From: an uncultured Pirellulales bacterium
Lineage (GTDB): Bacteria > Planctomycetota > Phycisphaerae > Sedimentisphaerales > Anaerobacaceae
Assembly (NCBI GenBank): GCA_964415045.1
Contig: CAYPZL010000001.1
Span: forward strand, 14,210 to 78,209
Reading direction: 5' to 3'
DNA: 64,000 bases
This document shows positions 4,250-60,622 of the stretch, one piece after another (positions within the stretch are counted from its first letter, which is position 1; the number at the start of each line of letters is the position of its first letter). The notes under the pieces were generated by a model. That model was not told the DNA's origin, searched no databases, and saw only the letters and a program-made list of their open reading frames with translations. A program made the position numbers and the translations under genes.

Positions 4250-5671
4250 ATGTTTGACGGCGCCAAATTTCTAACTTTTGTCCTTTCACTCGTTATCGTC
4301 AGCGTCTCGGCTTTTGCCGGGGAAGATCGCTGGCGATTCATCATGACCTGCGACAGCCGCGGCGATTCCGTCACCGGCGTCAACGAGAGTGTCCTGGGCG
4401 AGCTCGTAGACGAGATTCTGCGCCACGATGTTCAGTTCGTGATGTTCGCGGGCGATCTGGTCTACGGGGCCCGGGTCGGCGCGGAGCGATTTGAAGGACA
4501 GTTGTGGCACTGGGTGGCGGTGATGGAGCCGGTCTATGAGGCCGGGATCGCCGTCTACGTGTGCCGGGGCAATCACGAGGTGGGCGACATGTGGGACGCC
4601 TGGGAAGGCGAACTACCCAATCCGCTGGACAACTATGCCCTGAGATGGCTGAACGTTTTCGGAAATGAGGCGCATCCCAATTTGCGGCTTCCGGGCAACG
4701 GGCCCGCCGGCGAAGAGTACATGACGTACTCCGTGACTCACAAGAACGCCCTTATCGTGGCTCTGGACCAATACGCAGGGACGCGTCATCAGCTTGCCCA
4801 CCGCCTCAATCAGACGTGGCTGGACGGCCAACTGAGGCAAAACACTGAGCCGCATGTTTTTGTCTTTGGCCATGAGCCGGCCTTTCGAACGCTGCACTTC
4901 GATTGCCTCGACTGGTATCCGGCCCGGCGCGACGCATTTTGGGGCAGCCTCCAAGCGGCCGGCGCGCGAACGTATTTCTGCGGCCACGATCATTTCTACG
5001 ACCATGCCCGCATCGACGACGGGGATGGGGACCTCGACAATGACGTTCACCAGTTCATCGTCGGCACTGCGGGGGCCTATCCTTATTGGTGGGTGCCGCC
5101 GTACGACGGGAACAACGGAGATTTCACGGTCGAGCAAGTGCATCACGCTGAGCGCTTCGGCTACGTATTGGTGGAAATCGAGGATGTGGACGTTACGGTT
5201 ACCTGGATGCAGCGGCAGGACAACGACCTTGAAGTGCCCGGTGTGTACGAGGCCGGCGAGGTGTGGAGCTACGCCGTCTCGCCCGCTCTTACGGTGACGC
5301 ACCCGAACGGGGGCGAGCGTTTCGTGGCCGGGTGTCCCCTCTCGATTGAGTGGAAGACGGTCGGGACGGACGATATCGAACGTGTGCTGATCGACTACTC
5401 GCTCGACGGCGGCGCGAGTTGGCTGCCGGCGGGCGAAGCGGCCAACACGGGCGTTCATGCCTGGCTTGCCCCCGCAGCGAGTTCGAGCGATTGCCTGGTG
5501 CGGATCCGTGCGATTGGATCGGCGATGCTGAGCGATGTCAGCGACGCGGCGTTCACCATCGATACGTGTCGGACCAGACTCGCCGCCGATCTCAACGGCG
5601 ATTGCGTCGTGGATTTTGCCGATCTGGCGGTGCTGGCGGCTGGATGGCTTGCCCGCGGCGCGGCGGAGTAA
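4250..5671 (+). CDS. secreted calcineurin-like metallophosphoesterase with beta-sandwich domain and one dockerin-like repeat
   Basis: RBS ggggagg lies upstream of ATG 4250. Motifs 'CDSRGD', 'GDLVYG', 'GNHE', 'GHDHFYDH', and C-terminal 'DLNGDCVVDFADLAVLAAGW'. Confidence 0.8.
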   Translation: MFDGAKFLTFVLSLVIVSVSAFAGEDRWRFIMTCDSRGDSVTGVNESVLGELVDEILRHDVQFVMFAGDLVYGARVGAERFEGQLWHWVAVMEPVYEAGIAVYVCRGNHEVGDMWDAWEGELPNPLDNYALRWLNVFGNEAHPNLRLPGNGPAGEEYMTYSVTHKNALIVALDQYAGTRHQLAHRLNQTWLDGQLRQNTEPHVFVFGHEPAFRTLHFDCLDWYPARRDAFWGSLQAAGARTYFCGHDHFYDHARIDDGDGDLDNDVHQFIVGTAGAYPYWWVPPYDGNNGDFTVEQVHHAERFGYVLVEIEDVDVTVTWMQRQDNDLEVPGVYEAGEVWSYAVSPALTVTHPNGGERFVAGCPLSIEWKTVGTDDIERVLIDYSLDGGASWLPAGEAANTGVHAWLAPAASSSDCLVRIRAIGSAMLSDVSDAAFTIDTCRTRLAADLNGDCVVDFADLAVLAAGWLARGAAE

Positions 5672-14168: not shown

Positions 14169-14216
14169 AAACGGTCACCCGAAAAGGTCGCCCTGCCGGT
14201 AGGACGGGCGCGGTTT

Positions 14217-59440: not shown

Positions 59441-59800
59441 ATGGCTGAAACACGCAGAGACACCCTGAGGCTCAATCCCGGCCGTGGCCCGAAGCGGCCT
59501 TCAATGGCAGCAGTTTCGATTCTTCTCTTGTCTGCCCTGGTATGTACTCAGAAGACTCACGGAGCAAACCGCCCATCCGGCATGGATGCGGAACTGAGGG
59601 CGAAATACAAAGCTGCGGCACCGTTGAATCACACCGTCAAGATCACCAGGGCCGGCAGCGTCCTGAAGCTTGACTACGAACTTGTCGGCACCGATGGAAA
59701 AGCATATTCCCTCTGGAAGATTCGCGATCGAAGCAAGCCAGCGTTCTCAGTCTATCGAGACAACGTCAAAGTAGGCGGCGGCACATTCGAGTTCGGCTGA
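59441..59800 (+). CDS. small secreted beta-rich protein ending at a TGA that is in frame with the next ORF
   Basis: Signal 'AAVSILLLSALVCTQKTHG'. Ends '...VGGGTFEFG*'. Confidence 0.5.
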   Translation: MAETRRDTLRLNPGRGPKRPSMAAVSILLLSALVCTQKTHGANRPSGMDAELRAKYKAAAPLNHTVKITRAGSVLKLDYELVGTDGKAYSLWKIRDRSKPAFSVYRDNVKVGGGTFEFG

Positions 59801-59810
59801 GGCGGATCTT

Positions 59811-59840
59811 GGTGTTCGTACTCGTGGCGAGTACCCTACC
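59811..59840 (+). other. RNA hairpin starting 11 nt downstream of the in-frame TGA (SECIS-like position)
   Basis: Upper stem GUACUC(59818-59823)/GAGUAC(59829-59834) with loop GUGGC. Lower stem GGUG(59811-14)/UACC(59837-40) across an internal loop. Confidence 0.35.
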
Positions 59841-59842
59841 AT

Positions 59843-60622
59843 GTGTCCGGCGACCTGCAAATCGTCGTCTCGGCCGATATAGGCGAGTTCGGCCCCACAG
59901 ACGGCGAGCCCGTCACGTATCATTTCAACCCCCTCTATCACGCCCAGGGCATGATCCCATGGTTGCTGTTGCCGTTGGCCTTTGTCGCTCTCCGAGAGAA
60001 TCGGACACCACGAGCCGCATGGATTCTCGCCCCGATCGCATTGTTGGCCACGGTATATCTGGTCGTGATCAGGATGATGCGGGTGACCTCCGGGAGTGCG
60101 GCCCAGTTGCATGTGATGTTTACGATCATCGTTCTCGGATTGTCCATGGTCTGGCTGCTTGCCGAACGCATTGGACGTCGAAATCGCTTTGTCACGTTCC
60201 TGCTGGCGAGCCTGATCTACTTCGGTTTCCTGGGCGTCAGCCTGCTGGCCAACGGACGGAGCCGGGATGTCACTGCGATTGCGTCTCTCGCAGCCGTTTC
60301 GATTCCGGCGATTCTATTGGCCCTTTTTCTTGCCACGCCGCACTGTACAAAGCCTTTCCACGGCGCTCGATTCGTCGCATGGGTCGGGGTCGCGCTGTTT
60401 GTCGCGTTACTGGTCACATTTTCGGTAATCATGTTCGTGTTCTACCGGCCCTCGAACCGTTCGATTGAGAGTCTGCTGAGGGAATTGCTGATCGCCTCCT
60501 TCTTCGGTAGCCTGATATACTACGCGGGCCTGCTGCCGTTCCTGGTTTTGCTGTTGGCGAATCCCTTCTGGCGAAAACGCCTTGAGGCCGTTCTGGGGCT
60601 CCAGACGGAGGTTCCTTCGTAG
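59843..60622 (+). CDS. polytopic membrane protein of unknown function (same frame as 59441-59800)
   Basis: About 7 hydrophobic segments after a beta-rich N-terminus 'GDLQIVVSADIGEFGPTDGEPVTYHF'. GTG start assumed by the ORF track. Confidence 0.5.
   Translation: MSGDLQIVVSADIGEFGPTDGEPVTYHFNPLYHAQGMIPWLLLPLAFVALRENRTPRAAWILAPIALLATVYLVVIRMMRVTSGSAAQLHVMFTIIVLGLSMVWLLAERIGRRNRFVTFLLASLIYFGFLGVSLLANGRSRDVTAIASLAAVSIPAILLALFLATPHCTKPFHGARFVAWVGVALFVALLVTFSVIMFVFYRPSNRSIESLLRELLIASFFGSLIYYAGLLPFLVLLLANPFWRKRLEAVLGLQTEVPS

Follow-up and report, generated by a model that had tools for sequence, protein, structure and literature searches.

Recoding of UGA as selenocysteine (Sec) in bacteria is best compared through SelB-dependent systems of the Escherichia coli fdhF type, in which an in-frame UGA is followed just 3', inside the ORF (open reading frame), by a small stem-loop with a G-containing loop, the Sec insertion sequence (SECIS), in a genome that carries selA, selB, selC and selD. 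The minimal E. coli element is an upper stem-loop of about 17 nt, located at a fixed short distance from the UGA. Among the protein families that can be set beside the one described here, the DUF1573 domain has a beta-sandwich fold and is widespread among Planctomycetota and Bacteroidota. A DUF1573 domain-containing selenoprotein (PF07610, motif UGC) is listed in a 2026 catalogue of prokaryotic selenoprotein families, together with selenoproteins of the membrane, namely YeeE/YedE GUxSG, a MerT-like protein, an SO_0444 family transporter and SaoP (PMC13188914), and ‘hypothetical protein DG’ (NF049953, motif GUxG) was reported by deep-Sep in 2025 from Desulfobacterota, with many Cys homologues (PMC12013277). 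Here we describe a gene in a window of 64,000 nucleotides (the whole stretch of DNA analysed; positions 14,210 to 78,209, forward strand, of contig CAYPZL010000001.1, assembly GCA_964415045.1) from an uncultured Pirellulales bacterium placed by GTDB in the Sedimentisphaerales, class Phycisphaerae. The in-frame TGA of this gene, at 59798-59800, is very probably a Sec codon within a single gene, and its product belongs to a family referred to here as SecIg. With the fdhF-type system the locus shares the in-frame UGA, the small in-ORF stem-loop just 3' of it, the G-containing loop and a genome with selA, selB, selC and selD; it differs in its hairpin, GUACUC-GUGGC-GAGUAC, which has no evident bulged U, and in its protein, which is unrelated to formate dehydrogenase, lacks a molybdopterin domain and is not cytoplasmic.

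An earlier note on this DNA had pointed out that an ORF beginning at 59441 closes with ‘...GGGTFEFG’ and the TGA, that the next 14 codons are free of stops, and that the ORF from 59843 continues in the same frame, so that read-through would place a Cys five residues beyond the TGA-encoded one. Each of these statements holds in the sequence and its translation, in which the 14 codons lie at 59801-59842, the second ORF (59843-60622) is GTG-initiated and the junction reads ‘...TFEFG-U-GGSWCSYSWRVPYHVSGDLQIVV...’. Read across the TGA, the region gives ‘TFEFG-U-GGSWCSYSWRVPYHV’ within a product of 393 residues, that is, a single coding sequence (59441-60622, forward strand) of 393 codons plus a TAG stop, in which UGA codon 120 would be read as Sec and which is at present split into ORFs of 119 and 259 residues. 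As judged from sequence, 59441-60622 is one gene encoding one membrane protein and not two genes, because conservation crosses the junction, the TGA is kept and one beta-sandwich spans it. The note's proposal that Sec insertion joins the two ORFs is borne out by the Sec machinery of the genome, by conservation of the junction, by a Cys at the Sec position in a genome without selB and by covariation in the hairpin. What computation shows directly is that the UGA is conserved, that the hairpin covaries, that the machinery is present and that the family co-occurs and is linked with it, and from these the actual insertion of Sec at this codon is judged very probable.

The conservation of the TGA extends far beyond the source genome. 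A search with the fused protein returned 71 relatives, all but one of which are 216-290 residues long and cover the downstream part only, the exception being a 578-residue relative with low coverage (P0072). In these downstream-only proteins conservation reaches back to whichever start the gene caller chose, and one relative at 39% identity starts with ‘MCSYSWRVP’, four residues past the TGA. A conserved re-initiation start 3' of the UGA was ruled out, as the called starts vary between homologues. When 15 genomic relatives were fetched (Sedimentisphaerales and Phycisphaerae metagenome-assembled genomes and a few filed under other names; 36-72% identity), tblastn alignments extended up to query residues 1-392 in a single frame, with the TGA at the same aligned column in all 15, within FE[FY]G-TGA-GG(x)xC[ST]YSWRVP. 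At the level of the class, the family was found in 35 of 301 genomes, with the TGA in 57 of 57 match rows; at the level of the phylum the TGA was present in 28 of 30 matches, and among 700 Planctomycetota genomes nearly all matches carry it. Moreover, a TGA-plus-hairpin pattern (TGA-GGNGG-N9-12-hairpin) occurs in at least 120 metagenome contigs, and the 80 loci fetched from metagenomes, which were chosen by a pattern that includes the TGA, have an open frame both before and after it in 80 of 80 cases. In all, the TGA is kept across dozens of independent assemblies at 30-98% identity. The comparison of homologues across the junction that the earlier note had called for thus found conservation on both sides with the TGA retained, and the homologues without a TGA are continuous single ORFs of the same architecture.

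The genes for Sec insertion, for which the earlier note had also recommended a search, are all present in the source genome: selB (364 bits), selA (539 bits, adjoining selB), selD (357 bits) and tRNA-Sec (73 bits, anticodon TCA). TGA is the commonest stop codon of this genome and closes 49% of 1,972 long ORFs, which, together with selA, selB and selD being free of internal stops, rules out a genome-wide reassignment of TGA. Among the genomes of the class, selB scores above the curated cut-off in 32 of the 35 that have the family and in 76 of the 266 that do not; in one of the three exceptions (G154), selB is split over two contigs. At the phylum level, selB is present in all of the 11 additional genomes from other classes that carry TGA forms (11/11), and the two genomes with TGA-less copies, G369 and G514, are both without it. 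The site was read in G369 only of these two; its copy (locus L077) has ‘FEYS-C-GGVCSYAGKMP’, in which Cys stands in for Sec, the partner Cys is retained and the residues encoded by the hairpin have been lost.

The family is also physically linked to the Sec genes. A family member shares a contig with selB in 24 genomes, at a distance of 0.2-20 kb, and in 18 of these the two are within 7 kb. SecIg genes occur in 15 of 16 examined sel islands; in 11 of the 16 a SecIg gene adjoins selA on the opposite strand, and in at least 4 a form of about 220 residues immediately precedes selD, in the same orientation. In the source genome, two small tandem SecIg paralogues are divergent from selA/selB (C271:3799-4847, locus L064); the second of these (4689-4847) has a signal-peptide-like ‘MKRRYGIILLILLA’ in another frame just upstream, and looks truncated or frameshifted. 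At locus L087 of one relative (G028:C54, 9658-16042), a SecIg gene is followed by an outer-membrane channel-like gene (Phenol_MetA_deg), an NMT1-type ATP-binding cassette (ABC) importer consisting of binding protein, permease and ATPase, selD, a membrane iron-sulfur protein (Fer4_5) and two genes for SecIg fused to a seven-transmembrane-helix (7-TM) domain. The surroundings of selD are similar at L085 and L089, and Fer4_5, ABC ATPase and redoxin genes recur in other sel islands. The L087-type surroundings may represent a selenium-uptake module.

Evidence on the codon also comes from the hairpin 3' of the UGA. The earlier note had drawn a two-tier hairpin at 59811-59840, of which the upper tier (59818-59834) stands: it is an element of 17 nt, G-UACUC-(G)UGG(C)-GAGUA-C, on the forward strand, with a 6-bp stem formed by a 5' arm at 59818-59823 and a 3' arm at 59829-59834 around the loop GUGGC (59824-59828). 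The lower tier (59811-59815 with 59836-59840) is drawn by RNAfold in the window alone, is not kept by homologues and was dropped. Within the genome of 5.9 Mb there are exactly four copies of the 17-mer, all of them 14-17 nt past an in-frame TGA and with the same peptide motif. In a set of 47 sites drawn from the window gene, from its paralogues and from relatives throughout the class, which comprise 43 distinct sequences, the 17-mer is near-invariant at the nucleotide level and its flanks are variable. The six outer pairs are paired in 43 of the 43 distinct sequences, and the changes that occur preserve them: a U:A pair becomes C:G six times, through Tyr to His on one arm and a synonymous GTA to GTG on the other; an A:U pair becomes G:C once, through Tyr to Cys and Val to Ala; and three further stem changes are wobble-compatible. 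The resulting covariation score is reached by none of 500 shuffles. Eight sequences lack the seventh pair, which would close the loop; this leaves an element with a 6-bp stem and a loop of 5 nt, (G/A)UGGC.

Codon choice in the hairpin follows the RNA. Its Arg codon is CGA at 46 of the 47 sites, compared with a genome usage of 13%; its Val codon is GTA at 40 sites and GTG at 6, the latter always paired with CAC; and its Ser codon is TCG or TCA, the commoner AGC or TCC never being used. The preceding codon always ends in G, across nine different codons for eight amino acids, and the third base of the Pro codon directly outside the stem is free to vary. Going by these comparisons, the hairpin is under selection as RNA. 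A diverged SecIg member of the source genome (TGA at C12:20080, forward strand, in the ORF C12:19156-20214; ‘...ESMKYG-U-GGRCGLSWESRDV...’) has a wholly different stem, GGCUCUC/GAGAGCC, and the same GUGG loop, and this swap of the stem suggests that GUGG is the SelB determinant. The hairpin of the window gene starts 17 nt past the UGA, and the distance from UGA to apical loop, at 23 nt here and 20 nt for the majority of paralogues, lies inside the 16-37 nt described for bacterial SECIS, which have a small, G-containing apical loop (PMC10778597).

Taken as a mechanism, SelB with Sec-tRNA(Sec) would most likely bind the 17-nt hairpin that begins 17 nt past the UGA, upon which the ribosome would insert Sec at codon 120 instead of terminating. 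The product would be an inner-membrane protein of 393 residues made up of a signal peptide, a periplasmic Ig-like (immunoglobulin-like) sandwich whose exposed, Gly-rich loop FEFG-U-GGSWC bears Sec120 and Cys125, and a 7-TM domain. In the sequence (all features on the forward strand), the N-terminal leader is encoded at 59441-59563 and is predicted to include a signal-peptide-like hydrophobic stretch at residues ~22-41, ‘MAAVSILLLSALVCTQKTHG’; residues 1-45 have low confidence in the structure model, equivalent leaders are found in homologues, and Met22 (59504) is a possible alternative start. The SecIg domain, a predicted periplasm-facing Ig-like beta-sandwich of residues ~60-163 defined by the model and a profile, extends over 59618-59929 and contains the loop FE[FY]G-U-GG(x)xC. 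Within it, conservation and the model place residue 120, encoded by the UGA, in a loop between strands 109-115 and 124-130, and the presumed Sec partner Cys125 (TGT, 59813-59815) is near-invariant both in the domain alignment and at the 47 sites. The spacing between the two residues is U-x4-C in the window gene and U-x3-C in most paralogues. The membrane domain, seven helices and a C-terminal amphipathic helix at residues ~170-385 in the structure models m6fd70136c4e1 and mf28d50f2a1eb, is encoded at 59948-60595.

The full-length AlphaFold (AF2) model has a predicted local distance difference test (pLDDT) score of 82.7 and a predicted template modelling (pTM) score of 0.74. It shows a seven-stranded beta-sandwich at residues 63-162, with a pLDDT of about 90 and the TGA-encoded residue in the loop named above, followed by the seven transmembrane helices and the amphipathic helix. 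From the positive-inside rule, the 7-TM domain is predicted to be N-out/C-in, and its conserved Arg-rich loops, ‘ENR’, ‘WLLAERIGxRNRF’ and ‘FWRKRL’, are probably cytoplasmic. The alignment of the 7-TM domain contains no conserved Cys or His, and in the Sec domain the only conserved residues with obvious chemistry are the Sec and the Cys four to five residues on. The Sec120/Cys125 loop is probably a redox site that forms a selenenylsulfide, or else a two-ligand site for binding a chalcogen or metal, on the periplasmic face. Structural and sequence comparisons place the protein apart from described families: Foldseek with the full model returned only generic Ig-like matches (E ≥ 0.025), the separate 7-TM model had no structural relative in the PDB (best E 0.39), a PDB sequence search gave no match, and for the fused protein, a paralogue or the domain by itself neither Pfam nor NCBIfam had a relevant match, the paralogue showing a weak MG2 hint (E 0.005). 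With an Ig-like sandwich in the model and a U-x3/4-C motif, the protein also falls outside the thioredoxin-fold selenoproteins with UxxC or CxxU.

The SecIg family is large and occurs in several architectures. Searched with a profile of the domain, a library clustered at 50% yields 719 proteins at E ≤ 1e-3, and about 110 of the 150 best representatives, as examined by eye, stop exactly one residue before the Sec position; these entries are truncated gene calls. The members include small membrane-anchored proteins, larger secreted proteins and 7-TM fusions, and in metagenome loci the frame 3' of the TGA runs for ~41 codons in soluble or anchored forms and for 270-320 codons in 7-TM fusions (32 of 80). 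Long forms carry extra N-terminal domains with ‘DLNGNxDLTDDP’-type motifs and a further beta-domain, and the window gene is the minimal 7-TM form of the family. At L023-L027, the Sec domain is in frame, without intervening stops, with a region of ~600 N-terminal residues ending in a pseudopilin-like ‘LYSWGxNLVDDGG...WPV’; either this is a far longer architecture or the true start is internal. In L026 (JAAYVJ010000452.1) and in protein P0068 the 7-TM domain diverges after ~215 residues (‘...GRIGEVHAWAKEPTLRNLG...’), which suggests that this assembly has a frameshift or truncation.

Several points weigh against a Sec codon or qualify the evidence for it. The Fisher test on the association of the family with selB (p = 5e-13) ignores phylogenetic non-independence. 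The 76-nt stretch that contains the hairpin folds with z = -0.82, and 40 of 200 shuffled versions reach an equal or better energy, so that the hairpin exceeds chance by virtue of the comparison between relatives and not of its stability; an Rfam scan of 59700-59950 gave zero family matches, SECIS included. The usual hallmark of selenoprotein families is the existence of Cys homologues. In SecIg these are rare: the one clear case is L077, in the genome without selB, and this rarity of Cys substitutes distinguishes the family from most selenoprotein families. In TGA-less representatives of the 7-TM type, the Sec column is occupied by L, G, T, P, W, R, S and others, with Cys in 0 of 31, within a degenerate loop, and about half of these residues are one mutation away from TGA. 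The Sec site can therefore be dispensed with by at least some relatives.

These varied residues, about half of them a single step from TGA, would fit an alternative in which the UGA and the hairpin function mainly as a selenium-dependent translational gate, the full-length protein being made only when Sec-tRNA is available and the identity of the inserted residue mattering little. The location of the family in selA/selB/selD islands, where selenium-coupled expression would make sense, also agrees with it. However, the G-U-G-G-x-C loop is near-invariant across Sec-bearing paralogues and classes, which points to a functional site, and a selB-less genome has Cys at this position with the partner Cys retained; moreover, termination at the UGA would leave half a beta-sandwich, which is not a useful alternative product, and called starts after the UGA vary, with none conserved. 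A gate of this type is thus considered improbable. More improbable still is read-through by a near-cognate tRNA (e.g., for Trp), stimulated by the hairpin and without any Sec. Hairpins downstream of a stop codon can promote read-through in some systems, and Sec at codon 120 is assigned here from sequence. Nevertheless, TGA forms track selB almost perfectly, the TGA-less forms at the phylum level occur exactly in genomes without selB, there is physical linkage between the family and selA, selB and selD, and the position of the hairpin and its small G-containing loop agree with the description of bacterial SECIS (PMC10778597). Finally, the alternatives raised in the earlier note, i.e., a gene disrupted by a nonsense mutation or by an error of sequencing, or two genes that fall into one frame by coincidence, are effectively refuted: public gene calls do keep the parts separate (71 matches downstream-only bar P0072, and ~110 of 150 representatives ending before the TGA), but this is what gene finders give at any Sec codon, and conservation excludes them, as the TGA recurs in dozens of independent assemblies at 30-98% identity, protein conservation crosses the junction and one folded domain spans the TGA.

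With Sec as the preferred reading of codon 120, the family can be compared with catalogued selenoproteins. With the DUF1573 selenoprotein, SecIg shares being predicted, lying outside the thioredoxin fold and having Sec beside Gly and Cys; it differs in its motif, U-G-G-x-(x)-C instead of U-G-C, in its fusion to a 7-TM domain and in its linkage to selA, selB and selD, and neither the window protein nor the paralogue matches PF07610, at E ≤ 1 or E ≤ 10. The GUxG string of hypothetical protein DG fits the G-U-G-G of SecIg, and both families are uncharacterised; NCBIfam release 20.0 (June 2026), including NF049953, NF041374 and NF045500, has no model matching the fused protein, and with the paralogue and the isolated domain at E ≤ 10 the only match was an irrelevant TIGR03374 on the isolated domain (E 0.13, 11 bits versus a cut-off of 909). 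The catalogued membrane selenoproteins resemble the window protein in having Sec in a polytopic membrane protein, some of them being tied to chalcogen or metal transport; in those, Sec is located inside the transporter, whereas in the window protein a periplasmic Ig-like domain added to the membrane part carries it, and this 7-TM part matches none of the YeeE/YedE, MerT-like, SO_0444 and SaoP families. The catalogue of 119 prokaryotic selenoprotein families contains no fitting entry, DG and DUF1573 having the nearest motif strings (PMC13188914), and no description of SecIg was found in the literature on selenoproteins of Phycisphaerae and Planctomycetes. The protein family is thus new to the catalogues checked, and the recoding mechanism is the canonical bacterial one.

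Other features of Sec metabolism were noted in the same genomes. In the source genome, a secreted protein with FG-GAP/VCBS repeats has an in-frame TGA at C5:10015 (forward strand, ORF C5:9700-11043; ‘...EDGRVPSG-U-CIGFGPHVVDLDDDGHQDIL...’) with a hairpin, GGUCCACA-UGU-UGUGGACC, ~14 nt downstream, and is a candidate for a separate selenoprotein. That SecIg is the sole selenoprotein of the genome was ruled out, a crude scan having given at least this one other candidate. A Sec-containing formate dehydrogenase was not found in the source genome, and its SelD is not a selenoprotein. This SelD is a long form, with an open frame of 557 residues (C160:2519-3442) against ~311 model positions, and the SelD of the G028 relative (L087:13307-14737) has Pfam AIRS and AIRS_C domains and a weak C-terminal CMD/AhpD-like stretch (E 9e-4).

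The context of the islands raises the possibility, held tentatively and as yet more doubtful than not, that the SecIg family takes part in the capture or uptake of selenium that feeds SelD, co-evolving with the Sec machinery. In such a scheme, the periplasmic Sec-Cys loop would capture or reduce selenium species on the membrane's outer face and hand them over to a route that feeds SelD, which could be the 7-TM domain in the fusions or the ABC importer and Fer4_5 protein beside selD. The capture protein itself would need Sec, making the system self-reinforcing and, if true, this would also explain the near-absence of Cys substitutes.

Beyond its possible role, the family has consequences for annotation and for the search for selenoproteins, as the Sec codon splits hundreds of entries in the databases. 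A search for Sec/Cys pairs of the type that required at least two Cys homologues (PMC1088965) would probably miss SecIg, because its Cys homologues are so rare. The very compact, sequence-invariant SECIS could define recognition by SelB across this phylum, and further selenoproteins could be sought with it as a key. SecIg is a large family, nearly obligate in its Sec, exported, built on an Ig-like rather than a thioredoxin fold and tightly linked to selA, selB and selD across the phylum. It could help explain what retains the Sec trait in these anaerobic Planctomycetota, and it is a candidate for the poorly understood connection of selenium uptake with the synthesis of selenophosphate.

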